Part shown: in pieces, positions 1-28,121 of the stretch
How the letters are laid out: every line of letters begins with the position of its first letter
Numbering within the stretch: position 1 is the first letter of the stretch
Source of the DNA: a virus
Lineage: Duplodnaviria; Caudoviricetes
Virus record (IMG/VR): IMGVR_UViG_3300030376_002572
Coordinates: 1-28,121 of that record
Length of the DNA stretch: 28,121 nt
Reading direction: 5' to 3' (one strand)
The notes under the pieces: generated by a model
What the model was told of the DNA's origin: nothing
The model's input: the letters and a program-made list of their open reading frames with translations, nothing else
The model's database searches: none
Made by a program: the position numbers and the translations under genes

Positions 1-96
1 ATAGCAGGCGTAGATTATTCACAATTAGATAGTACAGAATTTACAGATAATATGCCAAAAGAGCATGTCGCAGATACAGAAACACTTAAATTATAA
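1..96 (+). CDS. 3' end of a small hypothetical protein (partial): IAGVDYSQLDSTEFTDNMPKEHVADTETLKL*
   Basis: Frame 1 is open to TAA at 94-96; similar to the C-terminal part of the ORF running off the right end of the window. Confidence 0.6.
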   Translation: MAGVDYSQLDSTEFTDNMPKEHVADTETLKL

Positions 97-165
97 AGTT
101 GTAAGTCCTGTGTGACCTTCTAAAAGGAGATTGCCATTTCCTTAATTCCAGGCACACAGGCAACC

Positions 166-173
166 GATAAATA
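166..173 (+). promoter_or_regulatory. GATAAATA box (T4-late-like promoter)
   Basis: Intergenic; the 13-mer caaccgataaata (161-173) recurs exactly at 25274-25286. Confidence 0.55.
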
Positions 174-267
174 TTATTACATTATAATATAGACAGTTAA
201 AGAGGTAAAGTGTCCACTAACAACTGTCGGTAGTAAAGATGGGTCTTTACATTATTATATTTTCCTT

Positions 268-300
268 AAAGCCGGATAAGTCAAGCGATCCGGCTTTTTT
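268..300 (+). terminator. Rho-independent terminator
   Basis: Stem aaagccggat (268-277) / atccggcttt (288-297), T-run 295-300. Confidence 0.8.
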
Positions 301-307
301 ATGAGCC

Positions 308-339
308 AAAAAAATACCCACGTAATTGTGGGTATCTTT
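308..339 (-). terminator. Rho-independent terminator on the minus strand
   Basis: Minus strand reads atacccac-aattac-gtgggtat followed by a T-run. Confidence 0.7.
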
Positions 340-386
340 AACCGTTGTTTTACATCGGTGTTTGCAAGTTAGGACAAGCAATATTA

Positions 387-414
387 ATTATAACATGTTT
401 TAATGATTTGTCAA
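387..414 (-). promoter_or_regulatory. Sigma70 consensus promoter, leftward
   Basis: Minus strand TTGACA (414-409), 16-nt spacer ending TGT (extended -10), TATAAT (392-387). Confidence 0.7.
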
Positions 415-440
415 CAAAAGTGGCAAAATATTGCTAAAAG

Positions 441-448
441 GATAAATA
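441..448 (+). promoter_or_regulatory. GATAAATA box upstream of the portal/head operon
   Basis: The 16-mer aaaaggataaatagta (436-451) is identical at 15528-15543; 36 nt before the portal start. Confidence 0.65.
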
Positions 449-484
449 GTAATACCATATGACAATGTAGCACGGAGATAACAA

Positions 485-2261: not shown

Positions 2262-3107
2262 ATGATGGAAGCATCAAATGACACGGCAGTTCAGCCCGAA
2301 ATAGTTGAACCAGTAACAGATTCTGCAAATCCTGTCGCTACTGAGCAATCAGTTGCAACTGAGACTAAATCTGATAATAACACAACACCTAGTGTTGAGG
2401 TCAAGGACGGTAAAACATTTGTTAATGGAGTCAGAGTATATACTCGAGACGATACTAACAAGATTGCCGCTAATGCTAAAAACGAGGTTCAAAAGAATAT
2501 TCTTAATGAGCTTAATGTAGACAGCATAGACCAAGTGAAACAAGTTGTTTCTACCCTTCAAGAGGTTAATCCTAATGAAGGTAGTAGCCTAAACGTTGAC
2601 TCATTGAGAGATGCAGTTAAAAAACGTGAAGCAACAGTAGAGGAACTTAAATCGCAAGTAAACAGTCTAAAGACTGACTTGATGTTGAAAGACCATATGG
2701 GTCAATTGCAAAGTGCTATGCCAGGTAACTGGTCAGCACAACAGAAAGAGTCTGTAATCAAATTAATGAAAGCAGATGGTATGTTAGCAGTTGAAGGTGA
2801 TACATTTGCTATAAGAAACGGAAACGACTTCTTAACAACAGATGGAGAAACACCAGATTATGCTAAAGCAATTGAACTTGTAGGTAAGGATAAATTAGGT
2901 TTATCTTTTGGTAAAAAAGGTGTTGACGTACAGTACGGTGAAACCGGCGTAAGTGAAGCAGGACAAGGTCCTAAAGCATATAACGTTGATAAAGTAACAA
3001 CCGATACTGAATACAGATCGGCGTATATGAGAATACGTCAAAATCAGCCTGGTCTGAACAAATCTAAAATAACCGACGCAATGGTTAAAAAGGAAATGCA
3101 AAGATAA
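2262..3107 (+). CDS. Capsid scaffolding protein
   Basis: Between portal and capsid genes; acidic low-complexity N-terminus, YTRDD motif, coiled coil, basic C-terminal helix; AAGGAG RBS. Confidence 0.75.
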   Translation: MMEASNDTAVQPEIVEPVTDSANPVATEQSVATETKSDNNTTPSVEVKDGKTFVNGVRVYTRDDTNKIAANAKNEVQKNILNELNVDSIDQVKQVVSTLQEVNPNEGSSLNVDSLRDAVKKREATVEELKSQVNSLKTDLMLKDHMGQLQSAMPGNWSAQQKESVIKLMKADGMLAVEGDTFAIRNGNDFLTTDGETPDYAKAIELVGKDKLGLSFGKKGVDVQYGETGVSEAGQGPKAYNVDKVTTDTEYRSAYMRIRQNQPGLNKSKITDAMVKKEMQR

Positions 3108-3121
3108 GGCAGGATATAACC

Positions 3122-3180
3122 GAATTAGATTAATCTAATTCATACATAAAATAGAAAAATAGTTAATTATAATTAACTAT
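3122..3180. repeat. Two perfect AT-rich palindromes (20 bp and 22 bp)
   Basis: gaattagattaatctaattc 3122-3141; atagttaattataattaactat 3159-3180. Confidence 0.9.
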
Positions 3181-3196
3181 CTACAGGAGAAATATT

Positions 3197-4102
3197 ATGG
3201 CCTATTCAACAGGTTCAGATACAATTGCTCAAATGTATGCAGATATTGTCCAAGACTTAGTACCTTACTATCTTGACAAAACGTTACTACAGAACTCTGC
3301 TATCATCAGAATGCAATTAAACGTAGAAGGACAAGGCGGTGGACAAATTAGAATTCCAGTTGCTACAGTCCCAACAGCGGCGGCTACTATTGCGGAAGGG
3401 GATTCAATCCTTGCCGGTTCAAATGGTAACTTAACGCCAGTAGCGGCAAATGTCGTATTTGCTAAAAGAGGAGCGGCTTCAGACGTAACTCAAGAAGCAG
3501 TAGAAGATGGATTATTTGATAACGTAGTTGGTGCTACACTAGACAGATTGTCAGGTGTTTTAGCAACAGGTACAGACTCAGCAGGTACAGCCTTAATGAA
3601 AACATCTTTCACAAATAACGATGGTGTAACAGGTGCTAACGTTAAGTTCACACAATCATTTATTATGTCACCAGACGCTATGGCATTTGGTACAGCCAGA
3701 ACTCCAACAGTCAACACATGGTTCAACCCTAACCTTGACCTACATGAGTTCAGAGCAACAACAAGAAATGGTTTCACAGTACTAGACAGCAGATTTGGTA
3801 GAACAATTGTATCTAAGAAATTAGGTGAGACAACAGCTCAACCAGAAGCAAACGTAGAAGCGATTGCAACATCAGTTGCTAACTTAAGAGCCGTAAATGC
3901 ACCAGTAGGCGCAGATGGAAATTACGTTGGTGTTATTGATGCAGGACTAGAACTTGCAATTAATAAACAAATCGCAGGTGTAGGTGGATCTACAGTTGGA
4001 GCACTAAGTGATATTGGTAACAACGCATTGAGAAATGCTTTTGCATCAGTATTAGCAGGATGTACTCTATATAGAAGTAATCTATTACCAGACGCATCTT
4101 AA
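3197..4102 (+). CDS. Major capsid protein (HK97-like fold, apparently permuted element order)
   Basis: 301 aa after the scaffold; E-loop GGQIRIP..IAEG, spine helix LDRLSGVLATGTD, A-domain NLRAVNAP..NYVGVID and LAGCTLYRSNLLP; AGGAG RBS. Confidence 0.85.
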   Translation: MAYSTGSDTIAQMYADIVQDLVPYYLDKTLLQNSAIIRMQLNVEGQGGGQIRIPVATVPTAAATIAEGDSILAGSNGNLTPVAANVVFAKRGAASDVTQEAVEDGLFDNVVGATLDRLSGVLATGTDSAGTALMKTSFTNNDGVTGANVKFTQSFIMSPDAMAFGTARTPTVNTWFNPNLDLHEFRATTRNGFTVLDSRFGRTIVSKKLGETTAQPEANVEAIATSVANLRAVNAPVGADGNYVGVIDAGLELAINKQIAGVGGSTVGALSDIGNNALRNAFASVLAGCTLYRSNLLPDAS

Positions 4103-4119: not shown

Positions 4120-4692
4120 ATGGCATTTATAACAGACGGCGGTGGTACAGTAATTTCTTTTGCAGAATACACTGATGTAGTACAAAAAGACCAACGTATA
4201 TTCGAGAGTAATAACCTTAAGATACCAGAGGAATCAGGTTTCGTAAGTGTACAAGACTATGTAGAAAATATGTTGCAAAAAAGTACTGATCGTATACTGT
4301 TAAAAATGAAAACATCAGCATGGTGGAGTACTTATAACAATTATGTAGGCAGTTCCTTTGAATTTAACAACTTACCCAGTGTAAACCCAAATCGTATAGA
4401 TCCAAGTAACACACTAGGTAGACAGCAACAATTCACAGATATGACTGTTTACTATTGTATTAAGGAATACATCGCGCCTTTGTTTGCCGAATTTGGTAAC
4501 GACGAGTCCCCAGAAGTAGCAAAAATACAATACTATGACGCTAAATTTAATGACATCTTTCAGGAGTTATTAAGTGTTGCAGATTGGTATGATGCTGACG
4601 GAGACGGTACAGTTGAAACCAATGAGAAATTAACAACATTTGCCAGAACAAGACGATCAAGGTCTAAAAACACTATTGTGGTGGTAAGATAA
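4120..4692 (+). CDS. Head-tail adaptor/connector (putative)
   Basis: Directly after the capsid gene, 190 aa, helical; C-terminal DADGDG motif. Confidence 0.6.
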   Translation: MAFITDGGGTVISFAEYTDVVQKDQRIFESNNLKIPEESGFVSVQDYVENMLQKSTDRILLKMKTSAWWSTYNNYVGSSFEFNNLPSVNPNRIDPSNTLGRQQQFTDMTVYYCIKEYIAPLFAEFGNDESPEVAKIQYYDAKFNDIFQELLSVADWYDADGDGTVETNEKLTTFARTRRSRSKNTIVVVR

Positions 4693-5090
4693 TGAGTAAA
4701 AGATCAGATTTAATAACTCAGATCACAACTAACTTATCTGCACACAGCAATTCTGTTTCAATAAGTCAGGAGTTACCATTCGATTCGGGTGGTAACCCTC
4801 TTTATGAGAAAAACCCTAACGTCATATATGTAGATGAGCAACAATTAGCAGTAGAACAGTTGTACAGAACCCTGGATCAGGGCGATGTTAACCAGACTAC
4901 TACAACTATTAATGCTTATTTTACAACAGATGCCAAAAATCAGCTCAGTGATATTAATACCGTTGTTTCAAATCTGTTAATTGCCAGGAATGCAATTACA
5001 TCAGTTACAGATAGTAACAGTGATTACGAGACTGAAATAACAGATGACAAAATAACTTATACGTTCGCGTATAACTTCATAACCATATAG
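4692..5090 (+). CDS. Tail terminator/completion protein (putative)
   Basis: 132 aa immediately before the tail tube; N-terminal helix then beta-rich; TAATG coupling. Confidence 0.55.
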   Translation: MSKRSDLITQITTNLSAHSNSVSISQELPFDSGGNPLYEKNPNVIYVDEQQLAVEQLYRTLDQGDVNQTTTTINAYFTTDAKNQLSDINTVVSNLLIARNAITSVTDSNSDYETEITDDKITYTFAYNFITI

Positions 5091-5100
5091 GAGAAATAAC

Positions 5101-5580
5101 ATGGCAGGAGTAATTAATGTAACTAGCGGTTCACAAGCGATCCTCACATTAGGTAACAGTATAACACTAGCGGCTCCAGGAGCAACTAACGGATTTGTCG
5201 TACCCTTGGTACAAGACATTTCGGTTTCAACCGCTCCAGGAACTGTAAGATATTCAACTTTAGACAGCACATCAAGTAGTGCTTTCACAACAGTTGTAGA
5301 GAATGAAATATCATTTAACATGTTGTTAGATGACGATGCATTCTTTGGTCTTACTAATGCCCATAATACAGTAGCAGATGCTGGATTATGGACTACGTCA
5401 AATAGCAAAACAGAAGTATTCTTCAGTGTTGCATTTGAAGGCGCAGACTCTAGTGATTATTACTTACACGGTAAAGGCTTCATTGGCGGATTGGCACCTA
5501 GTGCTAGTATCGACCAAGCAGTCTGGATCTCACCGGGATCAATTATCGTTAATGGTGATTTAACCAAAGCAACCGTTTAG
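5101..5580 (+). CDS. Major tail (tube) protein
   Basis: 159 aa; tube-like pattern VQDISVS..GKGFIGGLAPSASID..IIVNGD; AGGAG RBS; followed by a terminator. Confidence 0.8.
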   Translation: MAGVINVTSGSQAILTLGNSITLAAPGATNGFVVPLVQDISVSTAPGTVRYSTLDSTSSSAFTTVVENEISFNMLLDDDAFFGLTNAHNTVADAGLWTTSNSKTEVFFSVAFEGADSSDYYLHGKGFIGGLAPSASIDQAVWISPGSIIVNGDLTKATV

Positions 5581-5594
5581 TAATTAAACATAGT

Positions 5595-5622
5595 ACACCC
5601 TCAGCAATGGGGGTGTTCTTTT
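5595..5622 (+). terminator. Rho-independent terminator after the tail tube gene
   Basis: acaccctca-GCAA-tgggggtgt followed by tctttt. Confidence 0.8.
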
Positions 5623-5634
5623 AAAGGAATTATT

Positions 5635-5895
5635 ATGGAAGAACAAGTACATAAAATAGCAAACAGATGTATAGTTGATGGTAAATGGACCATGGACACA
5701 TACGATGTTGTTATAGATGGAGAGACACATGATTTTAGAGATCTTGCAAAACAGCATGGTATTAAAATGGGCTCAAAATCTAAAAAAACAATAAATACAG
5801 ATATAGAGGAAGAAAGTTATGGAGATATGGGACAAGCACCAGACTCAGGAAGTGCTGAAGAGCATGGAAACGGAGATAGCGAAGGCTCAGAATGA
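5635..5895 (+). CDS. Hypothetical protein, 86 aa
   Basis: AAGGA RBS; its 3' part overlaps the next ORF in another frame. Confidence 0.6.
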   Translation: MEEQVHKIANRCIVDGKWTMDTYDVVIDGETHDFRDLAKQHGIKMGSKSKKTINTDIEEESYGDMGQAPDSGSAEEHGNGDSEGSE

Positions 5896-5995
5896 ACTTA
5901 GATGTGCAGGCGGTGATATAACCAAAGCACACAAACGTATTGCATTTTGTTTAAGTGCATTACACAATTTGAAAAAAAGAGATATAAAGGAATAA
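5819..5995 (+). CDS. Small coiled-coil protein, 58 aa (not in ORF track): MEIWDKHQTQEVLKSMETEIAKAQNELRCAGGDITKAHKRIAFCLSALHNLKKRDIKE
   Basis: GAGGA RBS at 5806-5810; ATAAATA at 5791-5797 upstream; ends 4 nt before the chaperone gene. Confidence 0.7.
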   Translation: MEIWDKHQTQEVLKSMETEIAKAQNELRCAGGDITKAHKRIAFCLSALHNLKKRDIKE

Positions 5996-5999
5996 AGAT

Positions 6000-6296
6000 A
6001 TGAAATTAAGCGAATTAGCAAAACAACCACAATTACAAAAAATTGTCATAACTGACAAACCCATAGTAGAAAAATATGGTGAAGAGTTAGAATTTTTTAT
6101 TTATGACAGACAACCATTAGATATATTCACTAAATTAGCGGCCGCTAGTACAGAAAATACTGGCAGTTATATTGATTTATTGGCAGATATAATTATGGAC
6201 GAAGAAGGTAATAAAATTATAAGTGATAATCACGTGTTACCCATGGATGTGTTAACAGAAGCACTTAAATTAATTGGCGAACATCTGGGAAAGTAA
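6000..6296 (+). CDS. Tail assembly chaperone (gpG-like)
   Basis: Upstream of the tape measure gene; ends ...L-G-K* over the slippery site G GGA AAG. Confidence 0.85.
   Translation: MKLSELAKQPQLQKIVITDKPIVEKYGEELEFFIYDRQPLDIFTKLAAASTENTGSYIDLLADIIMDEEGNKIISDNHVLPMDVLTEALKLIGEHLGK
6287..6293 (+). promoter_or_regulatory. -1 programmed frameshift site GGGAAAG
   Basis: Same heptamer as the lambda G/GT site, in the correct phase just before the stop; the -1 frame stays open for 84 codons. Confidence 0.9.
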
Positions 6297-6547
6297 CATC
6301 GCATTACATTTCCGTAGAAGGAGATCCAAGTACTAATGCATTACTCTTAATAGATAGTGTATGTAGAAGATATGGTGTTTTACCTAGCAAGTTGTTGTTA
6401 GAAGCAGATTCTTTTGATGTAATGGTATTTGATGTAGCATTAAAATGGGAAAGAATGCAACAAAGCCAACAAGATGGTAAGGTAGATACATCAATGTATA
6501 GCCAAGAAGAATTACAGAGCATTATGAAAAAGGTTAAAGGAAAATGA
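6293..6547 (+). CDS. gpT-like extension of the frameshifted chaperone (fusion about 182 aa, 6000-6547)
   Basis: -1 frame VTSHYISVEGDPSTNALLLIDSVCRRYGVLPSKLL...VKGK*; its TGA overlaps the next ATG. Confidence 0.85.
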   Translation, partial: VTSHYISVEGDPSTNALLLIDSVCRRYGVLPSKLLLEADSFDVMVFDVALKWERMQQSQQDGKVDTSMYSQEELQSIMKKVKGK

Positions 6548-6837
6548 AAGTTAAAATAAACACTAAAGGATTTTTTAATTTAAAAGATAAGTTAGAAGAT
6601 TTACCTGATGAAAGTATGAAAGATGCTTATAAAACATATTTGGAAAATACTCCTGTACGATCTGGTAATGCTAGAAATAAAACAAAATTAGATACAAGGA
6701 ATAATACAATTAACAGTAATTATGATTATGCAAGTGCGTTGAACTCAGGCAGAAGTAAACAATCTCCTAAAGGCTTTACAAATCCTGCAATAAAAAAATT
6801 ACAACAAGTTATTTCTCAAAAAATAGGTAAATTATAA
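6544..6837 (+). CDS. HK97 gp10-like neck/tail component
   Basis: Basic 97 aa with TPVRSGNARN and YASALNSGRSKQSP motifs. Confidence 0.75.
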   Translation: MKVKINTKGFFNLKDKLEDLPDESMKDAYKTYLENTPVRSGNARNKTKLDTRNNTINSNYDYASALNSGRSKQSPKGFTNPAIKKLQQVISQKIGKL

Positions 6838-8885
6838 TGGCTAAAGAAAGTATAAAAGTAGCATTACAACTAAATAATGGTCAATTTGATAAAGCACTAA
6901 GTTCAAGCACACGAAATGTGCAAGATTTTGAACAATCAGGCATAACATCATTTACTAAGGTTGCCGCGGCAATAGGTACAGTTGTAGCCGCCGCAAAATC
7001 ATTGCAAAGTATTGTAGAAGTAGGTGCTTCATTTGAAGACTTACAAAATTCTTTAAATGTTGTATTTGGTAGTATCCAAGAAGGTGCAGTAGCATTTGAA
7101 AGAATAAAAGATTTTGCAAAAACCACACAATTCAGTGTACAAGATTTAACAAAAGGTTTTATACAGTTAAAAGGTTCTGGTGTTGAACCTACAAATGACT
7201 TAATGAGCACATTTGCCAATACGGCAAGTATTACTACAGACCAATTAGGTACTTTCCAAGCAATGCTGGATTTAGTTAGCAGAACTACAGCAGGTGGTCT
7301 TAATTTACAAGACTTAAACAGATTAGGAGACAGAGGTGTTCCTGTATTTGATATTCTAGAAAAAAAATTAGGTAAGACAAGAAAAGAATTGACTAAAATG
7401 GGTCAATCAGCGGATGGTGCCAAACAAATAATAGATGCTTTAACAGAAGGATTAAATGAAAGATTTGGTACAGCATTAGATTCTGGTGCTAATAATATTA
7501 GCAGGTTAACTAATAACCTAGGTGATGGCTTTGATGAATTAAAAGATTCTTTGTTTAAATTATTTGACGATGAATTAAAAACAGCAATTAAAGGATTTAC
7601 TACTGTAATTGAAAATTTAACAACAGCAATTAGCAATCTAGATAAAGAAGGTAGAAATCTTATAGAAGGTCTAGCAATATTGGGTGGTATAGCAGTAGCA
7701 ATATTTAATCCGTTTAATAAATTAAGATTAGCATTTGGTGGACTTAAAAAAGGCGCGGCCACAATAGGCACGCCAATAAGAACAGCCGCTACAGAAATGG
7801 TTAAACAAAAAAATTCTGCGGCCAGACTTAAAACAGCAATTCTAAGTCTAGGAGCAGGTTTACTTACTTATTTTGGTATACAAAAAGCAATAGAACCTGT
7901 TATAGAAAAACAAAATGAAGAGTTAAAGAAAAATGCAGACAATTTAGAAGTAGTTACAGAAAGAGTTAAAGAATTTGTTGTTGCAACTACTGAAACACAT
8001 CCAGAATTAGATTTAACTTTAACTAAATTAGAATTTTTAAGGAAAAAATTAGCAGGAGTAAGCCGTACAGATTTTGGAACTAAATTTAAAGAACAAATAT
8101 TATTAGCAACAAAAAGTACTGGAAATTTTGAAGACTTTTTAACGTTCTTAAGAGAATTTTTCGCAGGTAAGGAAACAATAGGGGATATAGAAGAATTTGT
8201 AGAGTTATTTGACAGATTAAAAAATGCATTTGGTGTTACTCCTTTTGATGATTTTATACAAAGTCTAGAAGGTTTATCTTTAAGTACAGATGAGTATAAT
8301 ATAAAATTAAAAGAATTAAATGCATTAATACTAAAATATCCAGAATTAGCAAAAGAAGCCGCTGAAGCACAAAAAGTATTAGACCAAGCCTTAAGTCAAA
8401 ATGAAGGATTAAATAACTTTTTAGAAACATTAGGTTCAGCACAAAAAGCCTTGAGTGAAGATTTAGCAACAGCATTCCTTGAAGGACAAAAAGCCGGAGA
8501 CGTATTTAAAAATTTCTTTAAAACATTAGTAACACAAATAATAGCAGACGTCATAAGATTAAGTATTATACAACCTATTCTAGGTGCATTACTATCACCA
8601 TTCGGATTTGGATTTGGATCAGGCGGTAATATAGTTAAATTAGCAACAGGTGGTCCAGTTATGGCAAACCAACCTTATATAGTTGGCGAAAGAGGTCCAG
8701 AATTATTTAGACCTACAGGTGCTGGTCAAATTATACCTAATCATCACCTAGGTGGCGGTGGTGGGGGACAAGTTACATACAACATCAATGCTGTAGATGC
8801 CGCATCATTTAAAACACTGGTTGCCAGAGACCCAGAATTTATTTACAATGTCACCAGAGCAGGTGCCAGAAGGGTGCCAGGATAA
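6837..8885 (+). CDS. Tail tape measure protein
   Basis: 682 aa, helical; N-terminal FAKTTQFSVQDL..DLNRLGDRGVP domain; C-terminal ATGGPV..YIVGERGPELF. Confidence 0.93.
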   Translation: MAKESIKVALQLNNGQFDKALSSSTRNVQDFEQSGITSFTKVAAAIGTVVAAAKSLQSIVEVGASFEDLQNSLNVVFGSIQEGAVAFERIKDFAKTTQFSVQDLTKGFIQLKGSGVEPTNDLMSTFANTASITTDQLGTFQAMLDLVSRTTAGGLNLQDLNRLGDRGVPVFDILEKKLGKTRKELTKMGQSADGAKQIIDALTEGLNERFGTALDSGANNISRLTNNLGDGFDELKDSLFKLFDDELKTAIKGFTTVIENLTTAISNLDKEGRNLIEGLAILGGIAVAIFNPFNKLRLAFGGLKKGAATIGTPIRTAATEMVKQKNSAARLKTAILSLGAGLLTYFGIQKAIEPVIEKQNEELKKNADNLEVVTERVKEFVVATTETHPELDLTLTKLEFLRKKLAGVSRTDFGTKFKEQILLATKSTGNFEDFLTFLREFFAGKETIGDIEEFVELFDRLKNAFGVTPFDDFIQSLEGLSLSTDEYNIKLKELNALILKYPELAKEAAEAQKVLDQALSQNEGLNNFLETLGSAQKALSEDLATAFLEGQKAGDVFKNFFKTLVTQIIADVIRLSIIQPILGALLSPFGFGFGSGGNIVKLATGGPVMANQPYIVGERGPELFRPTGAGQIIPNHHLGGGGGGQVTYNINAVDAASFKTLVARDPEFIYNVTRAGARRVPG

Positions 8886-9649
8886 TGAGTAATTATCAAT
8901 ACGTTATAGACAATGCGACGTCCCTGCAGTTAACATATCAGGATATAACAAACAGTAGTATATCCAGAAGTTCAGAAATAACTACAGGCGTAGTGTTTGG
9001 TATTAGGCCATATTCATTAACTGTGACGTTACCTCCTGTGTTAGATGCTACAGATCCTGATGTTAGAGGCTTACTTGCGTATATAGATAAAAATGCAAAG
9101 GTCACATCAGAAATTATTAATATTGGTAGTACAAATACAGGATTAGATTATATACTAAAATACAGAGGTAACGCAACTACTACAGCAATTAATAATTTAG
9201 ATTTAAGTACATATGGCAGACCAGGACAAGCAAATACTAGCAATCAATCGCCTCCTGTACAATTAACACCCAGTACTAAAGTGTTAACATTAAGTACAAA
9301 TCAAAACAATATACAAGCAGATGCCCTATATTTTAAGAAAGGTGATTATATACAATTAAATGACACAGATAATGAAAATTTAATGGTGATAGCAGAAGAC
9401 AGATCAGCAAGTGATTTTTATGGAGGTATAGGAACAAAATATTTAGACATTCCTTTAGAACGTGTATACACAACCAAGTCAGGAGGTTATGCATCGCTAA
9501 GTTCACCTAATGTGTTAACAGGTACAGATGTAAGAATGACATTTACACTAATAAACCAGCCTAGGTATACCCTAGTGCCAGGAGGTCCAGGTAATGTTAC
9601 AGTACAATTTCAGGATGCTTTTGAATTCGCGGAGGTATTATACACATGA
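8885..9649 (+). CDS. Distal tail-like protein, copy 1
   Basis: Directly after the tape measure gene; KKGDYIQL motif, ends FEFAEVL. Confidence 0.6.
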   Translation: MSNYQYVIDNATSLQLTYQDITNSSISRSSEITTGVVFGIRPYSLTVTLPPVLDATDPDVRGLLAYIDKNAKVTSEIINIGSTNTGLDYILKYRGNATTTAINNLDLSTYGRPGQANTSNQSPPVQLTPSTKVLTLSTNQNNIQADALYFKKGDYIQLNDTDNENLMVIAEDRSASDFYGGIGTKYLDIPLERVYTTKSGGYASLSSPNVLTGTDVRMTFTLINQPRYTLVPGGPGNVTVQFQDAFEFAEVLYT

Positions 9650-10275
9650 GCGTAGCAAGTGCATTCGGTAACGTAATGTTGCCAGAAACATATCTTAAGA
9701 TAGTGTTAAACAAGCCTGTAAATAGAAGCACAGGATTAAGTGGTCAATATGCCGCAGAGCATTATTCAGCAAATGTTATATATCAATTCGAAGTAGGTAT
9801 AAGTCCAGGTTACTCTTATAGCGAAAACAGAAACGATATTTTAGATATAGAACAGGGTATGAAAGATCATACACAATTTCAATATACATTAAATTTATCA
9901 GGATTTACAGCATATCAGGGAGATGTAACTGATTTAGCAAATGTAACTCATACTAGCTCAGTCCATGGAGAATCTACTGTATATGTAAATACTACAGCAG
10001 TTACAGGAAGTCCATCAGGTAATTTAGTTAGAGCAGGCGATTGGGTAAGAGTTGGAAATAAATTTGCACAAGCGTCTGAAGATGTTACATATAGTTCAAG
10101 CAGTAATATAGCAATACCATTATCAAGACCTAATATAGATACAGGTTCTGTATCCTTAGTAGCAAATGCTCCGTTTTTTAATGTAAAATTTGCAGAGTAT
10201 AATCCATACACTATACAGCCTTATGACAGGTTACAATACAAAAACCCTAGTGTAAAATTAATTGAGGTAATATAA
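9646..10275 (+). CDS. Distal tail-like protein, copy 2
   Basis: RAGDWVRV motif, ends KLIEVI; same architecture as the preceding gene. Confidence 0.55.
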   Translation: MSVASAFGNVMLPETYLKIVLNKPVNRSTGLSGQYAAEHYSANVIYQFEVGISPGYSYSENRNDILDIEQGMKDHTQFQYTLNLSGFTAYQGDVTDLANVTHTSSVHGESTVYVNTTAVTGSPSGNLVRAGDWVRVGNKFAQASEDVTYSSSSNIAIPLSRPNIDTGSVSLVANAPFFNVKFAEYNPYTIQPYDRLQYKNPSVKLIEVI

Positions 10276-10937
10276 TGAGCACAAGTATACCAGAAGTAGC
10301 AAATCCTAGTGTTAATCACGCATTACTAGTAGACTTAACTTTGGGTGGGACAACATACAAATTAACTAATGGCTATAAAATGCCTGTAGCAACAGCCACA
10401 GATCCAGCATTTGGATATCAAGCACTAGGCGGATTTTTACAATGTGGAACTATTACAGAAAACATTAAAGCAACTACAGGAGATTTACAATTATCTTTAA
10501 GTGGTGTGCCTGTAGATAGTAATAATTATTTAACTACAGTATTAGGCACAACAGTAAAAGGTGGTAATGTAGTAGTACAAAGGGCTTTCTTCGATACTGA
10601 TACTGGTGAGACAACTAATGTATATCAACGTTTTAAAGGTATAATTACAGGTTTCTCTGTAGTAGAAGAATTAGATGTACTGGATGGAGAAAATACAGCA
10701 ACAGTAAGTATTACAGCGGCAAGTACACTAAGTATTTTAGAAAACCAAATTACAGGACAAAGAACAAATGAAGTAGACAGAAAACGTTACTTCCCCACAG
10801 ATACAATTATGGACAGAGTAAAAGATTTACATAATGTACAATTTGACTTTGGTAGAGAGTTCAGTTCCTCCGGAGGCGGTGGCGGAGGCGGTGGCCGTGG
10901 CGGAGGCGGTGGCCGTAGAAGGAATATACAAAGATAA
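10275..10937 (+). CDS. Tail tip/baseplate hub protein (DUF2163/gpL-like position)
   Basis: Motifs LQLSLSGV, VQRAFFD, RFKGII, GQRTN, FDFGR; Gly/Arg C-terminal tail. Confidence 0.65.
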   Translation: MSTSIPEVANPSVNHALLVDLTLGGTTYKLTNGYKMPVATATDPAFGYQALGGFLQCGTITENIKATTGDLQLSLSGVPVDSNNYLTTVLGTTVKGGNVVVQRAFFDTDTGETTNVYQRFKGIITGFSVVEELDVLDGENTATVSITAASTLSILENQITGQRTNEVDRKRYFPTDTIMDRVKDLHNVQFDFGREFSSSGGGGGGGGRGGGGGRRRNIQR

Positions 10938-11389: not shown

Positions 11390-11392
11390 TAT

Positions 11393-13929: not shown

Positions 13930-13932
13930 GAT

Positions 13933-15532: not shown

Positions 15533-15579
15533 GATAAATAGTACTACAAATTAAGGTTATATGCGATCACGCATATAGC
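15533..15579 (+). promoter_or_regulatory. GATAAATA box plus leader hairpin before the fibre module
   Basis: Box 15533-15540; hairpin gttatatgcg-atca-cgcatatagc 15556-15579; AGGAG RBS follows. Confidence 0.65.
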
Positions 15580-16110: not shown

Positions 16111-16119
16111 GAGACTAAA

Positions 16120-20895: not shown

Positions 20896-20979
20896 ATGCC
20901 AATGGGTAAAGGACAAAGAGGCGGAAAGAAAAAGAAGAAGAAAGGCCAAAGAGGTGGAAAAGGTTCTAAAAGAGGATAA
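20896..20979 (+). CDS. 27-aa highly basic peptide MPMGKGQRGGKKKKKKGQRGGKGSKRG
   Basis: AAGGAG RBS 6 nt upstream; too short for the ORF track. Confidence 0.7.
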   Translation: MPMGKGQRGGKKKKKKGQRGGKGSKRG

Positions 20980-21325
20980 GTGGGCTACTTATTTTGCGAA
21001 AATACGCAAAGTATGTCCATGGAGTCTAACCGCTTTTATGAAAGATAAAATATTGTTTGTAGAAACAAATGGCAGTTGTTTAGATACATACGCAAAATTG
21101 TTTCCGCATACAGAATATGAGGCTGTTGTTTATAAATGGCCCGATGCCAGTGTAGAATGGTTACAAACCATGTGTGATGGCTTAAATGAAATATACGACA
21201 CAGAATGGCTATGGAGCCACCCAGATGAAGGTGGAGATAGCACACACATACCAGTATTGATACAACAAGATGCTACACAATTAGCATTACTTAGGGAGAA
21301 AATAGGATATGTGGACGAAGATTAA
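20954..21325 (+). CDS. Hypothetical protein, 123 aa
   Basis: GTG start; CPWS and WLWSHP motifs. Confidence 0.7.
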   Translation: MEKVLKEDKWATYFAKIRKVCPWSLTAFMKDKILFVETNGSCLDTYAKLFPHTEYEAVVYKWPDASVEWLQTMCDGLNEIYDTEWLWSHPDEGGDSTHIPVLIQQDATQLALLREKIGYVDED

Positions 21326-21378: not shown

Positions 21379-21498
21379 ATGGAAGAACAAATTGCAGAAT
21401 TAAAACAAAAATTATACAGTAATGAAATTACTATAGCAGAATATGATGCTCAATTACATACTATATATGTAAATAATAATGCTTTTGGATCATTATAA
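21379..21498 (+). CDS. Small hypothetical protein, 39 aa (MEEQIAELKQKLYSNEITIAEYDAQ...)
   Basis: AGGA upstream; TAATG coupling to the next gene. Confidence 0.55.
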   Translation: MEEQIAELKQKLYSNEITIAEYDAQLHTIYVNNNAFGSL

Positions 21499-21722
21499 TG
21501 GCCAAACGAATAACAACACAAGAACTCCATAATGAGATTGAGCAGATCAGAAATCATGACCTAAATCATCTACATAAATGTACTCATAATTTATGGGAAG
21601 ACGTCAAAGACAACAGAAAATATTTTGAAAGCAGATTAGATCGCCTAGACAATCGAATTTGGGGTCTTGTGTTACTTACTATAAGTACATTGGGTGCAAC
21701 AGTAGCCAGTATGATGATATAA
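21498..21722 (+). CDS. Coiled-coil protein with a C-terminal TM helix (XhlA/holin-like)
   Basis: RLDRLDNR followed by hydrophobic IWGLVLLTISTLGATVASMMI. Confidence 0.6.
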   Translation: MAKRITTQELHNEIEQIRNHDLNHLHKCTHNLWEDVKDNRKYFESRLDRLDNRIWGLVLLTISTLGATVASMMI

Positions 21723-22083: not shown

Positions 22084-22120
22084 GATAAATAAAAGTGTAG
22101 CAACAATTAAGTTACTACAC
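22084..22120 (+). promoter_or_regulatory. GATAAATA box plus 5' hairpin
   Basis: Box 22084-22091; gtgtagcaac-aattaa-gttactacac 22095-22120; AAGGAG follows. Confidence 0.65.
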
Positions 22121-22340: not shown

Positions 22341-22844
22341 ATGGCAACAGATAAAGGAAAATGGATAAAAGGATCTGGCAAATATACTGAATACAGGTAT
22401 AGATCAGAATCAGACAAAAATTATACTACAAGGCAACATAGTAATCTTACACTAGGTGAAAACCCAGACTCATTTTACAGTAAATGGGGCATACATGCAG
22501 TAGACTTAGCAAAACAGGAAGGCGTACACCCTGCAACTATACACATGAGAGTACAGAACTATGGCACACCCTTTCAACGCAAAGCAAAGCCTACTTTAGC
22601 GGAAAAATTACATCACAAAACAGATTATGAACTGGGTTTAGAGTTAAATCTACATCCACAAAGTGTTAGACGTAAAGTAAACAAGTATAAAGATGCTTAT
22701 TACGAGAACCCACGTCAACAACACCCACTAAGAGGCAAAGTAATCAGTGCAACAGATGACTGGAGAGCAAATACTAAGCGAACTACGTTTTGGTTACATC
22801 CTTTACATGAAAATTATCCACATGAAGCCAGGAAGGGACTATGA
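22341..22844 (+). CDS. Putative DNA-binding protein with two HTH-like segments
   Basis: AVDLAKQEGVHPATIHMRV and DYELGLELNLHPQSVRRKV; AGGAG RBS. Confidence 0.6.
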   Translation: MATDKGKWIKGSGKYTEYRYRSESDKNYTTRQHSNLTLGENPDSFYSKWGIHAVDLAKQEGVHPATIHMRVQNYGTPFQRKAKPTLAEKLHHKTDYELGLELNLHPQSVRRKVNKYKDAYYENPRQQHPLRGKVISATDDWRANTKRTTFWLHPLHENYPHEARKGL

Positions 22845-23326
22845 GTGTAAGCACACAAGACGTACCTCTAAAAACAGATAAAGGTAAATTTGAACAAATA
22901 GCATTTAGACCTAAAACAACATCAGAAGGCAAAGAAACAGGTTATGTGTTCATACAACCAGAAGACCTGGATTATATTATGTACTGGATGCAAAGGTTTC
23001 TGATAGAAGGCGCTAGTCGAAGTGTTCAGGAAGATGATACCTGGAAGGTGTTAAATAATTTAAATGGTGAAGGTGTAGGTATATCGTTACCTAAAAGCAG
23101 TTATTTTAGCAAAGCAGAAAACAGTATAATAAGTTATGTGGGCGGTATTTTAAGCAATCATTACAGAAGCAATGCTGACTTAAACAAAAACCAACTTAAA
23201 AAAATAACAGAAGTATGGAATAAATTAATTGTACCACTGTTTGACAGCGCCTGGACACCAGGTTACAACTATAAAACAAAGGCAGACATACAACCTCCTA
23301 AAAGAATATCGTTTAAGGTGCATTAA
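22841..23326 (+). CDS. Hypothetical protein, 161 aa
   Basis: ATGA overlap with the upstream gene; no recognised motif. Confidence 0.7.
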   Translation: MSVSTQDVPLKTDKGKFEQIAFRPKTTSEGKETGYVFIQPEDLDYIMYWMQRFLIEGASRSVQEDDTWKVLNNLNGEGVGISLPKSSYFSKAENSIISYVGGILSNHYRSNADLNKNQLKKITEVWNKLIVPLFDSAWTPGYNYKTKADIQPPKRISFKVH

Positions 23327-23414
23327 GATAAATATTATTTGAAGTAGGCGACTATCATATATCTGACGATTGGTCTCCGAAGATGTTACAATTAGCATTT
23401 AGCGTCTACTTCAA
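23327..23414 (+). promoter_or_regulatory. GATAAATA box plus structured leader
   Basis: Box 23327-23334; 12-bp stem ttgaagtaggcg (23339-23350) / cgtctacttcaa (23403-23414). Confidence 0.6.
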
Positions 23415-23427: not shown

Positions 23428-23757
23428 ATGACAGAATTACAAACATATAAACACGAACGCAGAGTCAAGAACTTCCTGCGAACTAAACAGTTGCCCGTAA
23501 AGTATTTAGACTATGACAATGTAGTGATATATACTAAAGCAAAACAAACAGTTAATCTTAATATTATATCTGAAAAAGATAAAAAAATATTAAACAAATT
23601 TACTAAAAATTGGGTAATCGCTAAAGGTGATGTAAAACCCAGTTATGTGAAACGTGTGTCAGGTATGATAAAACATTATGCCTACAAGATGCAAAATTTA
23701 GCATTGAGAAATGCCAGATTACAAAGGAAGAACAACCTTAAATTGAGTAAGGCCTGA
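23428..23757 (+). CDS. Basic hypothetical protein, 109 aa (likely start 23428)
   Basis: K/R-rich; begins after the leader stem with AGG upstream. Confidence 0.65.
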   Translation: MTELQTYKHERRVKNFLRTKQLPVKYLDYDNVVIYTKAKQTVNLNIISEKDKKILNKFTKNWVIAKGDVKPSYVKRVSGMIKHYAYKMQNLALRNARLQRKNNLKLSKA

Positions 23758-24210
23758 ATAAGCCTGTAAATATGCCTGAGGCACATGAAGATGCTAACAC
23801 CTCAGGACACTGAAGCAATGCTACTACTAGAAGTATTGTGGATATATGTGTGAGAGCGACCAGCCTGTTATAGCCAGGTGAAGATGATAGACAACTCCTA
23901 ACTTAAATGGTTCCTAGTAGACTCAGCCCGAGGTGCACTTAATTGTGTTATACCGCTATAGGCTATCTTTTTTTTGTTTATAAAAAACAGTTAGCACTCT
24001 TTTGATTTCATTTCATTCATCAGCCCCCATGAGGTGTTCGATTTTCGAAGAAGGAATGTCTTATAAGACATGAAGTTAAATCAAGTAACGACATCGGAGT
24101 TACTTGTTTATCGAATGTCGTTGTAAATGCGAAGCATTTGCAAGAATATAGTCCGGATACTTACATAATCCACTTAACTGTGGATTTCTTCGTGAGTTGT
24201 ATTTCGGGTA
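23758..24210. other. Largest non-coding region, rich in inverted repeats (candidate ncRNA and/or origin)
   Basis: About 450 nt with no ORF in the track; several stems, a T-run, a 16-bp palindrome and a GCGAAGC hairpin. Confidence 0.55.
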
Positions 24211-24238
24211 TTGACAATTCCGGGTTTCAGTGTATAAT
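24211..24238 (+). promoter_or_regulatory. Sigma70 consensus promoter
   Basis: TTGACA (24211-24216), 16-nt spacer, TATAAT (24233-24238). Confidence 0.8.
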
Positions 24239-24547: not shown

Positions 24548-24591
24548 CCACTAAACCAGTCGGAAATACCGCACATACTGTAAATATCAGT

Positions 24592-24885
24592 ATGGAAGTA
24601 ACACCTGAACAAAGAAGACAATTGCTTACTATGAATCAGACAGCGGATCATATGTTTACCTGGGTATATGATGTATTACAGAGTAAAACAGTCACAGTAA
24701 AGCAATACAACCTTTTAATTAAAATAATAGACATGAACCCACAAGAACAAATGGGTTATGTTATACACGAAAATACCCTATATCCAGTACCCAGAAAAGT
24801 AAAGAGATACCAGAAAACAGCAACCGGCTGGAAATTTACCAAGAGATACAGTGGCATAACCAAATCACGCAGAAAGGATAAATAG
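24592..24885 (+). CDS. Hypothetical protein, 97 aa, basic C-terminus
   Basis: No SD; ATG starts 6 nt after GTAAATA. Confidence 0.65.
   Translation: MEVTPEQRRQLLTMNQTADHMFTWVYDVLQSKTVTVKQYNLLIKIIDMNPQEQMGYVIHENTLYPVPRKVKRYQKTATGWKFTKRYSGITKSRRKDK
24877..24884 (+). promoter_or_regulatory. GATAAATA box upstream of terS
   Basis: aaaggataaatag context matches the boxes at 441 and 15533. Confidence 0.6.
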
Positions 24886-24931
24886 ATATACGCAAACAGT
24901 AGCGACGATACTGATTATACAGGAGATGCAA

Positions 24932-25336
24932 ATGTCAACTGAAGATAAAGCACCAGAACAGCAAACACCATACAAAGTTAAAAATATAAAATACGGCGAT
25001 AAAACCGTACGTGGCAGAGTTGTGGGCCGAAACAAAACAGTTATACCAGAACAAGAATTTGAGAAATTAGCAGAACTTCATTGCACATGGCAAGAGATAT
25101 CAGATTGGTATAGAGTGCCAGTCAGTACCTTACGGGATAACTTCGCAGATTTATACGAAAAAGGAACTACCGCAACGAAACAGAGACTCAGAAAAGCACA
25201 ATTAAAGTTGGCCTTAAACGGTGACAGGACAATGCTTATATGGTTAGGCAAGAATATCCTGGGTCAAATGGAACAACCGATAAATACTACTGAGGACAAA
25301 GTCCTCCCATGGTTAGAAGAATCTGGTGAATCCTAA
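24932..25336 (+). CDS. terS: Terminase small subunit
   Basis: HTH (CTWQEISDWYRVPVSTL) and LRKAQ..ALNGDRTMLIWLGKNILGQ; upstream of terL; AGGAG spacing favours the ATG at 24932. Confidence 0.85.
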   Translation: MSTEDKAPEQQTPYKVKNIKYGDKTVRGRVVGRNKTVIPEQEFEKLAELHCTWQEISDWYRVPVSTLRDNFADLYEKGTTATKQRLRKAQLKLALNGDRTMLIWLGKNILGQMEQPINTTEDKVLPWLEESGES

Positions 25337-25447: not shown

Positions 25448-25452
25448 AAGAT

Positions 25453-26682
25453 GTGCAGTTAACAGATATACAAAAATCAATATTATCAGACGATACCAGA
25501 TTTGTCGTTTTAGTTGCAGGTCGTCGTTTTTCAAAAACATTTATAGCAATCAATTCATTAGCCAAACATGCCAGACATCCTGGTAAAAAGTGTATGTATG
25601 TTGCCCCCACATACAGAATGGCCCGCCAAATAGCCTGGGAAGACTGTAAATCCATGCTGAGAGAACGCAACTGGATAAAGAAAATTAATGAAAGTAACTT
25701 GGAAATAACATTAGTAAATGGCAGTATGATAATGATGCGTAGTGCTGACAACAAGGACAGTATACGTGGTATAGGTTTAGACTATGTTGTTATAGATGAA
25801 GCCGCTGATATACCAGGCCTACAGGAAACCTGGCAAGCCGTAATAAGACCTACTTTATCTGACCGTGAAGGCGATGCTATGATAATAGGTACACCCAAAG
25901 GAAAAGGGTTTCTGTTTGATTTGTTCAATACAGCAAAAACCAGTAAAGACTGGAAGAGTTATCAGTATACCACAGCACAAGGCGGACAAGTAAGTGAAGA
26001 AGAATTAGCACAGGCTAAAAGAGATCTTGATGAACGAACTTATAAGCAGGAATTCGAGGCAGGATGGGTAGAGTTCGCAGGCAGTATATACTATGCTTTT
26101 GGAGATCACAACGTAATCAGTAAGTCAGTACCGTTACAGCAAGGTACTCCTATACAAGTAGGAATGGACTTTAACGTTTCGCCAATATGTGCTGTATTGG
26201 CCTACAAAACAATGACTGGCTTACACATATTCGATGAGATAGAGATATACGGATCAGATACACAAGAAATGTGCAACGAAATACGCCAGAGATACCCAGA
26301 CCAACGTTTTATAGCATATCCAGATGCTAGTGGTGCCAGAAGGCAAACCAGTAGCGGAGGATTGAGTGATCACATTATTATAAAGAATGCTGGCTTTAAG
26401 GTAATATGTGGTACCCAGAATCCACCAGTTAAAGACCGTATAGCCAGTGTAAATAGTGTATGTAAACAGGATAATATTAGATTGACAATAGATCCAAAGT
26501 GTGCTAAAGTAATTAATGGTTTAAGAAAGCATACATACAAGGAAGGTACCAGACAACCAGAAAAGGACGGTGCTACAGACTTCAGTCACTTTAATGATGC
26601 ATTAGGATATATGGTATATGCCAATTATCCAGTTAGACCAGATGTAAAACAAACATATGGTAAAGTAAGTAGAACACTATAG
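25453..26682 (+). CDS. terL: Terminase large subunit
   Basis: Walker A-like AGRRFSKT, Walker B YVVIDE, GTP coupling motif, nuclease GMDFN..DASG..HFNDALGY. Confidence 0.96.
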   Translation: MQLTDIQKSILSDDTRFVVLVAGRRFSKTFIAINSLAKHARHPGKKCMYVAPTYRMARQIAWEDCKSMLRERNWIKKINESNLEITLVNGSMIMMRSADNKDSIRGIGLDYVVIDEAADIPGLQETWQAVIRPTLSDREGDAMIIGTPKGKGFLFDLFNTAKTSKDWKSYQYTTAQGGQVSEEELAQAKRDLDERTYKQEFEAGWVEFAGSIYYAFGDHNVISKSVPLQQGTPIQVGMDFNVSPICAVLAYKTMTGLHIFDEIEIYGSDTQEMCNEIRQRYPDQRFIAYPDASGARRQTSSGGLSDHIIIKNAGFKVICGTQNPPVKDRIASVNSVCKQDNIRLTIDPKCAKVINGLRKHTYKEGTRQPEKDGATDFSHFNDALGYMVYANYPVRPDVKQTYGKVSRTL

Positions 26683-26691
26683 GAGTTAAAA

Positions 26692-26868
26692 ATGGCAAAA
26701 CAAGTAGAATATGTTATAAGTGTAATAGAACCAGAACAGGAATACTTAAAGTATTTCCGTAACAGTACATTAGATAACTGTAGGCAAAAAGCACAGGAAT
26801 ACTTATGGGGGTGTCCAGAAGGCACAAAATACATTTATATCACAACGAGGTTAGCAGATGCAGAATAA
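26692..26868 (+). CDS. Small hypothetical protein, 58 aa (MAKQVEYVISVIEPEQEYLKYF...)
   Basis: AGGAG RBS at 26681-26685; not in the ORF track. Confidence 0.75.
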   Translation: MAKQVEYVISVIEPEQEYLKYFRNSTLDNCRQKAQEYLWGCPEGTKYIYITTRLADAE

Positions 26869-27106
26869 ACATTCATTCAAAGTATGGGATAAACAGGGAC
26901 AATTTATGACAAAGTATACCACAGAAGAAGTATATAAAATTACAGTCAATTACCCACATACACACAGAACACTAGAATTTATAGGCATGGACCGTGGTAG
27001 TTGCATACTACAGGCCGAGGTTGCTAAAGAAGAGGACGACTCAGTTATGCTTATGATATCAGAAGATACAGTTAAATTATTACAAAAGGAGAAAATGAAG
27101 ATATGA
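26858..27106 (+). CDS. Hypothetical protein, 82 aa
   Basis: GAGG upstream; overlaps both neighbours. Confidence 0.6.
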   Translation: MQNKHSFKVWDKQGQFMTKYTTEEVYKITVNYPHTHRTLEFIGMDRGSCILQAEVAKEEDDSVMLMISEDTVKLLQKEKMKI

Positions 27107-27288
27107 AATTACCAGAATATATGACAAAAGAAAGCACACATACCACAATTGGTGTTAACACAATGAGCTTAGTAGGACTTAGCCTTATGTGGGGACACAT
27201 GACAGATATGATATCATTATGGTTTTTACCACTTACTATACTATCACTGTTAGCAGGATTTGGTAACGAAGTACGCAAAAGAGATTAA
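27103..27288 (+). CDS. Small membrane protein with two hydrophobic segments (holin candidate)
   Basis: 61 aa, two TM-like stretches, charged C-terminus EVRKRD. Confidence 0.55.
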   Translation: MKLPEYMTKESTHTTIGVNTMSLVGLSLMWGHMTDMISLWFLPLTILSLLAGFGNEVRKRD

Positions 27289-27290
27289 TT

Positions 27291-27557
27291 ATGGACGAAT
27301 TTACAAGGAAGTCAACCGCTCATATGGATCAGAAGTTAGTCAAACAGGCTATAAAGGCTATTGACAAGTCACCAGAACTTAAAAAGATCAGAAGTATTAA
27401 AGACGGTATGCAGTATAGTGAGATCAATACAGGTGTTAATGATCAGCAATATAAAGATAACTATGATAAAATAAAGTGGACTAAAGATAAGGATAAACCC
27501 AAACCCAAGTTCAAAGTCAGAGTTAATGGCAAGGTTATAAACGATGAAGAAGAGTAA
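27291..27557 (+). CDS. Hypothetical protein, 88 aa, QYKDNYDKI motif
   Basis: ORF track; tightly packed with neighbours. Confidence 0.7.
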   Translation: MDEFTRKSTAHMDQKLVKQAIKAIDKSPELKKIRSIKDGMQYSEINTGVNDQQYKDNYDKIKWTKDKDKPKPKFKVRVNGKVINDEEE

Positions 27558-27711
27558 TTGGCATGGCGGAAAGGGCAGTACACCAAGAACAGACACTAAC
27601 AGTAAACAATATCAGGATAATTGGGAAAAGATATTTGGCAAGCCTAGAGATAACATAAGCACCAGAGATAAGGAAATAAAAAATGGCAAAAACACAAACA
27701 AAGACAAGTAA
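27544..27711 (+). CDS. Small basic protein, 55 aa (MKKSNWHGGKGSTPRTDTNSKQYQDNWEKIFGK...)
   Basis: Fills the gap between annotated ORFs; AAGG upstream; shares a motif with the preceding ORF. Confidence 0.75.
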   Translation: MKKSNWHGGKGSTPRTDTNSKQYQDNWEKIFGKPRDNISTRDKEIKNGKNTNKDK

Positions 27712-27931
27712 CAAATATGGAGAGATACCTAAAGGTAGCCAATTGGGCTTCTTTAAATTTGGAACAGCAGTATATGATGCACCTATAACATACAGTTATG
27801 GTTATATAACAGCACCTACAAAAGAACACATGGACTTGGCAGTACTTAATCATATAACAAAGTATGGACTAAGAGAAATAGAATCAATAACACAGGAAGA
27901 ATATGAGAGCAAAACACAAATACAATCCTAA
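27683..27931 (+). CDS. Hypothetical protein, 82 aa
   Basis: AAGGA RBS. Confidence 0.7.
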   Translation: MAKTQTKTSNKYGEIPKGSQLGFFKFGTAVYDAPITYSYGYITAPTKEHMDLAVLNHITKYGLREIESITQEEYESKTQIQS

Positions 27932-27965
27932 AACACGAGAAGGTGCTAGGAGAATAGCACAAAGT

Positions 27966-28121
27966 ATGGGATATAAGCATACTATATATGATGATCCCAA
28001 AATGATCGCATTGTTATATCGTGCTGGTATAGTAATGCAGGGCATAGACTATGGAGCAGAAGCAACATATGTTGATGATAACCCTGTACTAGATACTGAT
28101 CATATAGCAGATACAGAAACA
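27966..28121 (+). CDS. Hypothetical protein (partial, runs off the window end)
   Basis: 52 open codons MGYKHTIYDDPKMIALLYRAG...HIADTET; AGGAG upstream. Confidence 0.6.
   Translation, partial: MGYKHTIYDDPKMIALLYRAGIVMQGIDYGAEATYVDDNPVLDTDHIADTET

Follow-up and report, generated by a model that had tools for sequence, protein, structure and literature searches.

We analysed the whole 28,121-nt IMG/VR record IMGVR_UViG_3300030376_002572 (G000, here called the window), a Caudoviricetes genome that encodes its own siphovirus particle. Comparison of its genes and non-coding signals with those of its relatives and of large phages suggests that the window is probably a satellite virus of jumbo myophages of the PA5oct/Atu_ph07 type, which would supply its late transcription, replication, and lysis. 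The original prediction had proposed a reverse satellite of this kind, making its own particle and borrowing the remaining functions from a co-infecting T4-like phage. The idea as such gains support, although not equally in its parts. Borrowed replication appears supported for most of the relatives, via a shared non-coding element (type B), while the element found in the window itself (type A) had no counterpart in large phages; borrowed lysis is suggested solely by the absence of a recognisable lysin. The T4-like helper, in turn, had to be replaced: a promoter box with G as its first base, the shared element, and a shared gene point to PA5oct/Atu_ph07-type large myophages. It thus probably parasitises jumbo phages and not T4-like ones, given its PA5oct-type late signal and the copies of the likely jumbo-phage origin in the majority of its relatives.

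The record represents a complete genome of about 28 kb, as had been claimed, and closes as a 28,037-bp unit. A 519-nt contig from read run X3 spans the join, with its nt 1–294 corresponding to positions 27828–28121 and its nt 280–519 to positions 70–309, and a 232-nt contig from run X4 likewise bridges position 28121 to position 70 onward. Four relatives (L001, L003, L007, and L008) are collinear across the circular join. Runs X2–X4 derive from one sample and X1–X4 from one study, X1 being possibly the source; the best holders of the window sequence were marine metagenomes, all of one study, and no RNA dataset was present among the listed holders. A clean terminal repeat at the window ends was ruled out, as the overlap consists of 15 nt (28107–28121, duplicated at 70–84) and an allele bubble: according to the alignment of relatives and the X3/X4 contigs, positions 1–69 (+ strand) carry the 3′ end of ORF (open reading frame) 27903 in a second allele. 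Where direct terminal repeats serve as a mark of satellite viruses, the window gives a circular map. Since the unit closes at 28,037 bp, no module is missing from the window, and the contig does not run on into a replication or lysis module. All real genes lie on the + strand and encode portal, head, neck, tape measure, tail tip, fibre, and terminase. PHROGs and Pfam profiles supported the portal, major head, neck, tape measure, hub, tail tip, fibre chaperone, and large terminase (terL) assignments, while scaffold, tail tube, tail chaperones, small terminase (terS), and the 1586-aa fibre were assigned by position and composition alone. The full siphovirus morphogenesis and packaging set is thus confirmed, including the own capsid and packaging machinery by which satellite viruses are recognised.

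Apart from the structural block and terL, no ORF is longer than 167 aa, in agreement with the earlier statement that all remaining ORFs are under 170 aa. No polymerase, primase, helicase, integrase, repressor, sigma, or endolysin family was recognised among the window ORFs using PHROGs, Pfam, and NCBIfam; the sole "endolysin" PHROG match belongs to the tape measure, where it comes 15th among 24. Neither the replication initiator nor the endolysin that mark HTVC111P-type phages was detected in the window, and it contains no tRNA and no Rfam match at the gathering threshold. A profile of 50 PA5oct-type sigma factors gave no match among 11,715 ORFs of the family and the window (best E value 0.88), and 12 small-ORF profiles scored 1.6% or less against the PA5oct-type sigma. 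Relatives were gathered by terL and portal; IMG/VR holds 414 portal relatives and at least 549 terL relatives, the latter including HTVC111P-like phages. The near-complete ones (G001, G002, G006, G007, G012, G015, G021, and several others) yielded no recognisable polymerase, primase, helicase, integrase, sigma, or endolysin in family scans, which covered 117 ORFs, mostly without a window match, against PHROGs and left out short and antisense ORFs, and promoter boxes recur in relatives at the same places as in the window. The extra genes of close relatives found in the PHROGs scan were exclusively methyltransferases, HNH nucleases, and a glycosyltransferase. G001 and G002 (L027, L030) carry DNA methyltransferase and ParB-methyltransferase genes at differing insertion sites around terS/terL, and HNH endonuclease genes occur in the small-ORF and terminase regions of G006, G012, G015, and G005.

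The first link to a helper is the promoter box. Module starts had been said to carry (G)ATAAATA with no −35 box. This holds for the form GATAAATA, present 7 times vs. 2.7 expected (2/100 shuffles) and always on the + strand; ATAAATA alone lies below chance (12 vs. 19.1 expected) and was rejected as the motif. The T4 form, TATAAATA, occurs at one site, inside a gene, vs. 5.8 expected, so that the window does not show the T4 late consensus. Of the seven GATAAATA boxes, five touch the non-coding 6.5% of the window (binomial P of about 4e-5 for a motif chosen after the fact, with our own ORF set), and the remaining two, ahead of terS and terL, fall within the ends of genes. The boxes are located ahead of a candidate small RNA (166–173, at the same place in L001, L003, L007, and L008), the head-tail operon (441–448), the fibre module (15533–15540, conserved in G001 and G002), the small-ORF block (22084–22091), an exchangeable cassette (23327–23334), terS (24877–24884), and, inside the end of terS, ahead of terL (25279–25286, conserved in L001–L005, L007, and L008); the sites at 441, 22084, 23327, and 24877 are likewise kept in relatives. 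Over 163 family loci, which are partly redundant, GATAAATA was found 259 times on the sense strand vs. 41 times on the other. With 2–4 mismatches from TTGACA in 7/7 cases, the window boxes are of the −10-only type without a −35. This part of the claim stood, but the genome also has two perfect sigma70-type promoters in a promoter scan, one at 387–414 (− strand), back to back with the portal box, and one at 24211–24238 (+ strand), ahead of two small ORFs that are candidate early genes. Some host-read transcription is therefore likely. The promoter at 414–387 (−) is directed away from the portal operon, towards hairpins situated around 300–340, and may make a short antisense RNA.

The same box marks the virion genes of PA5oct, in which GATAAATA is enriched (32 vs. 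11 in the control) and TATAAATA is not (38 vs. 60). PA5oct boxes stand directly ahead of sheath, baseplate, fibre, portal-operon, and other virion genes. PA5oct/Atu_ph07-type large myophages carry a 280-aa gp55-like sigma, and in PA5oct this late sigma is gp137, annotated as hypothetical (phrog_12791, E 8e-82). On sequence evidence, the two marks of a PA5oct-type late system, GATAAATA upstream of structural genes and a phrog_12791 sigma in the genome, thus appear to occur together. We expressed the preference for G as the share of the G form among all NATAAATA sites upstream of ORFs. It was 5/5 in the window and 23/28 in seven close relatives (28/33 for the family), 25/41 in PA5oct, 36/58 in PA5oct together with G030 and G031, and 116/145 in 55 loci with a PA5oct-type sigma, vs. 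6/31 in Melnitz, 4/18 in ACG-2014i, 1/11 in HTVC008M, and 3/13 in Mosig, all classical T4-likes. A 16-nt motif from the portal promoter of the window matches large phages with a PA5oct-type sigma and similar composition (G030, G031), whose tetranucleotide correlation with the window (0.73 for G030 and 0.76 for G031) compares with 0.39–0.60 for T4-likes. One gene of the relative G021 has its only matches in jumbo phages of the PA5oct-like, Atu_ph07, and Phosso kinds (42–44% in 14 records); it is the counterpart of PA5oct gp330 (44%), which follows a GATAAATA box. Within 174 kb of PA5oct (L213, L220–L222), 25 of 30 GATAAATA sites are situated within 120 nt upstream of genes, many of them structural.

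An ATAAATA late motif was predicted earlier for the jumbo phages CBB and GAP32, and the available text of that report notes no gp33 or gp45 homolog in CBB, a related phage (PMC5259590), while gp33 orthologs are mentioned for group-2 jumbo phages in the accessible part of another (PMC7824862). The PA5oct main text lists sigma70-like motifs only (PMC7318152). The window shares with these motifs and with T4 late promoters a −10-only box ahead of structural genes, in those phages accompanied by a gp55-like sigma, but differs in that its genome encodes no such sigma and in the first base of the box, G.

The second link is non-coding. All relatives examined have a 400–600-nt non-coding stretch behind the homologs of two window genes, 22341 and 22841. 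Its common form, type B, is about 450 nt long and was searched for by an 18-nt motif, which is found at no fewer than 120 loci (about 530 estimated), 106 of them beside PA5oct-type genes, 3 in the family, and 11 unassigned. Among 20 long contigs hand-picked from these loci, 18 encode the PA5oct-type sigma, and completeness estimates put their genomes at close to 360 kb; of the two sigma-negative contigs, one is a complete 30.5-kb family-like genome. Twenty distinct family sequences carry type B, and the 8 copies tested align to large-phage copies with 66–83% identity over 45–425 nt, the copy in G012 being closest to the G030/G031 variant. In the large-phage sequence G037, type B lies in the 10-kb bin where the cumulative GC (guanine-cytosine) skew leaves its minimum and genes flip from − to +. 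Judged by this skew and gene-direction switch, type B is likely the replication origin of PA5oct-type phages. Near the sigma-gp47-gp46 cluster, a conserved non-coding element of about 450 nt is seen in L422–L541, in G037 at about 156.2 kb, and in PA5oct at 75.8–77.2 kb, and is a candidate origin or RNA. The family copy of the element that was tested gave no Rfam match at threshold, and E-value scans of both elements, type A and type B, against Rfam returned sub-threshold matches only.

Several observations weigh against the assignment to a jumbo-phage helper. As to the promoter, four relatives (G007, G016, G020, and G021) carry 1–2 boxes each, GATAAATA is weakly enriched in Atu_ph07 (26 vs. 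17), and the counted loci are related, so that the counts are non-independent. Several matches of the 16-nt portal-promoter motif fall in T4-like contexts, and it also occurs in unrelated contigs; the pooled sigma loci correlate with the window in tetranucleotides at 0.46; and protein sharing is slight, with no window protein matching the 236 kb of G037. Classical T4-likes use the G form as well, at 14/73 upstream sites. Together with short segments of the fibre that match Melnitz and cyanomyophages, this would suit a classical T4-like helper, e.g., a T4-like pelagiphage, in which gp55, gp33, and gp45 act on TATAAATA. Yet the T form was found upstream at 0/7 sites in the window and seven close relatives, the shared element and the shared gene both lead to PA5oct-type phages, and the type-B profile matched none of the T4-like stretches examined. 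We therefore regard a T4-like helper as very unlikely.

As to the origin, GC skew follows gene direction, which makes the origin call indirect, and the same slot in PA5oct is only a local GC-skew minimum. The type-B element could be an RNA instead of an origin, and BLAST found no type B in PA5oct, Atu_ph07, or three complete relatives of about 350 kb (G034–G036). The type-B profile does not match the window either, where the slot occupied by type B in most relatives holds type A (23760–24230), a structured non-coding element and candidate origin. Always beside it is the gene for a basic 109-aa protein, a candidate initiator (23428–23757, + strand). Type A is present in five family contigs besides the window, each time preceded by a 23428 homolog, and was found in no large phage; its motif gave 19 matches, the 14 outside the family resembling chance matches in genes. 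It may be a copy from an unsampled helper or a small replicon of its own, and type A with 23428 could be a self-sufficient initiator plus origin. Dependence would then be partial: the jumbo late sigma, and probably the lysin, would be needed, while the virus would replicate itself by 23428 or the 22341/22841 pair at type A, using the host replisome. This would fit with the perfect sigma70 promoter directly after type A and with the DnaD-domain protein that is the only replication gene of the kin phage HTVC111P. However, the commoner cassette in this slot is the large-phage element (20 distinct type-B vs. 2 type-A sequences at the same family loci), the 23428 protein matched no initiator family in PHROGs, Pfam, or NCBIfam, and, since its gene lies behind a GATAAATA box, 23428 would itself be helper-induced. 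We consider such partial dependence unlikely. In the near-identical sibling L004, whose terS is identical to that of the window, the slot is filled by type B instead of type A and is therefore exchangeable. A CHIPS-like match of 23428 (E 3e-4, far below the cut-off) was treated as chance.

As to the missing functions, G021 has a weak holin match (E 5e-4) and G020 a weak DnaC-like match (E 7e-4), and HTVC111P-like autonomous kin manage with small replication genes and a lysozyme, so that tiny initiators can be missed. HTVC111P-type pelagiphages, reportedly isolated on Pelagibacter, are the closest isolates (42–43% in terL and 23% in portal) and are similar in head-tail order and size. The window might accordingly be an ordinary autonomous lytic siphovirus like HTVC111P, with small proteins that replicate it, activate GATAAATA, and lyse the cell, and with the box and the element as relics of exchange. 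About 18 of its small ORFs are without assignment, and the 22341 product looks DNA-binding. HTVC111P-type phages differ from the window, however, in their divergent genome arms, a DnaD-domain or primosomal gene, a lysozyme, and no G box upstream: a DnaD-domain protein and a lysozyme are encoded by HTVC111P itself, a primosomal gene is present in the HTVC111P-like G022, and the G share in four HTVC111P-like genomes is 3/17. The window has no sigma-like ORF, and the retention of a 450-nt large-phage element by 20 divergent copies does not fit easily with a relic. Neither 22341 nor 22841 was detected in G012 and G015, which nevertheless retain boxes. Full autonomy is thus improbable in our judgement.

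The 22341 gene (22341–22844, + strand) encodes a family-conserved protein with two helix-turn-helix-like repeats, read by eye from the alignment, and is a candidate DNA-binding or helper-hijack protein. It has 148 homologs, and all 120 among the matches listed are on contigs of at most 33.5 kb. The adjacent gene (22841–23326, + strand; 239 cluster representatives) encodes the hallmark protein of the family, predicted as a beta-hairpin plus helical bundle with a pLDDT (predicted local distance difference test) of 94.7. The hallmark protein had no family match and no PDB sequence match; profiles of 22341 and 22841 gave nothing below E 0.06 against PDB sequences, the ESM Atlas contained no usable match for 22841 or 23428, and a 22841 homolog used as query matched no phage isolate.

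The closest known system is that of MiniFlayer and MulchRoom. According to the available text of their description, these Streptomyces phage satellites encode capsid and packaging proteins themselves, lack any recognisable replicase or primase, and exploit a virulent helper; MulchRoom uses the tail of its helper, whereas MiniFlayer, which does not integrate, grips the helper's neck with short fibres (PMC10690885). The window resembles them in its own capsid and packaging genes, in a composition close to that of the helper, and in the virulence of the predicted helper; the family searches, which left its small ORFs unassigned, recognised no replicase or primase in it, and like MiniFlayer it has no integrase. 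It differs in that the entire siphovirus tail, tape measure and fibre included, is encoded, and in its predicted helper, a jumbo myophage linked to it by a shared late-promoter box and origin-like element; its dependence is deduced from sequence and not from culture. Flayers were not among the top terL or portal matches of the window, with no direct homology search made against them. Phage-inducible chromosomal islands (PICIs), those that form capsids (cf-PICIs), P4, and PICI-like elements (PLEs) similarly exploit gene products of a helper phage but, as far as the same text goes, integrate, have their own replicases, and borrow tails or entire virions (PMC10690885). The window has no integrase, makes its whole virion itself, with tape measure, hub, tail tip, and chaperone encoded, and gave no sign of chromosomal residence: the bacterial genome contigs contained no close relative (17 terL matches, the best 43% identical). 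Two family-like contigs, L176 (27,961 bp) and L188, are found in bacterial metagenome-assembled genomes (Porticoccaceae, Fonsibacter) and are possibly mis-binned viruses, so that as they stand they give no evidence on the host.

DSL-LC06 of the proposed "Nanhuiviridae" (PMC10611076) looks like a distant family member published as an ordinary phage. Its 29.8-kb circular genome has a terL 42% identical to that of the window and a 22841 homolog, no replication or lysin gene is annotated, and 4/4 of its GATAAATA sites are upstream of ORFs. It is distant from the window, however, and is treated as an ordinary phage in the available text, the main part of which does not contain the words "satellite" or "promoter" (PMC10611076). 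No published account of the shared element, or of the family as satellites, came up in the literature search, which did not extend to subscription journals or to supplements (Table S3 for PA5oct, Table S7 for CBB); these may hold the box.

The remaining genes of the window all lie on the + strand. The portal gene (485–2191; phrog_145, E 8e-27) is followed by the scaffold, placed by position, and the major capsid protein (2262–4102; major head PHROGs, E 2-3e-4), in the same order as in HTVC111P and DSL-LC06. Next come head-tail joining, tail tube, chaperone, and neck genes (4120–6837; phrog_5, E 2e-9, for 6544–6837, the others by position) and the tape measure gene (6837–8885; PF20155, E 2e-22). 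The stretch at 8885–15519 encodes the distal tail protein, hub, a GNAT acetyltransferase, tail tip, fibre chaperone, and a glycine-rich protein, as assigned with PHROGs and Pfam, and 15604–20880 a conserved 168-aa protein and the 1586-aa fibre-like protein, with short matches to marine myophage tail fibres. The fibre gene has four repeats of about 108 nt (17432–17869) in a region resembling marine myophage fibres such as that of Melnitz. TerS (24926–25336) is placed by position, as it precedes terL in relatives; terL itself (25453–26682) matched phrog_2 (E 2e-43). Seven small ORFs at 26692–28121 had no family match at E<0.03 and are conserved in relatives. The candidate structured small RNA (174–302, + strand) consists of two stems and a terminator-like hairpin and is 82–84% conserved in close relatives; two-sided changes occur in 9/27 predicted pairs (6 related sequences), and no Rfam match was found for it. 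A 27-aa lysine/glycine-rich ORF (20897–20980) is possibly a DNA-condensing peptide, and small proteins with hydrophobic segments (21498–21722 and 27103–27288) are possible holins, the latter by composition alone. A distant family-like contig, L151, carries folE- and QueD-like genes at 7433–8499 that resemble those of PA5oct (36–42%).

If the window is a jumbo-phage satellite, its particle would infect the same marine bacterium as the helper. Host sigma70 would read a few early genes, and the late sigma of the helper, acting on host RNA polymerase, would then read the boxes and turn on the head, tail, fibre, and terminase genes. The helper replisome would be recruited at the origin-like cassette, a copy of the likely helper origin in most relatives and an unmatched variant in the window, perhaps with the aid of the 22341, 22841, and 23428 proteins. 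The helper lysin would finally free both viruses.

Because PA5oct can be propagated on P. aeruginosa PAO1, the reading is open to a direct test in culture. For the family as a whole, we hold it to be an even call whether a large aquatic group of siphoviruses of about 30 kb consists of non-integrating hyperparasites of jumbo phages of about 360 kb, which make their own virion, have copied the late promoter and origin of the helper, and swap the cassette to track helper lineages. The available part of a 2026 review states that the frequency of satellites of large phages is unclear and that few systems are known (PMC13359090). If true, our reading would add a widespread family (the 414 portal relatives in IMG/VR, with lifestyle not shown for all) that resembles ordinary small siphoviruses and would likely be missed by integrase-based satellite finders. 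The same comparison would locate an undescribed origin of PA5oct-type phages, and shared non-coding signals would offer a sequence-only route to pair satellites with their helpers.

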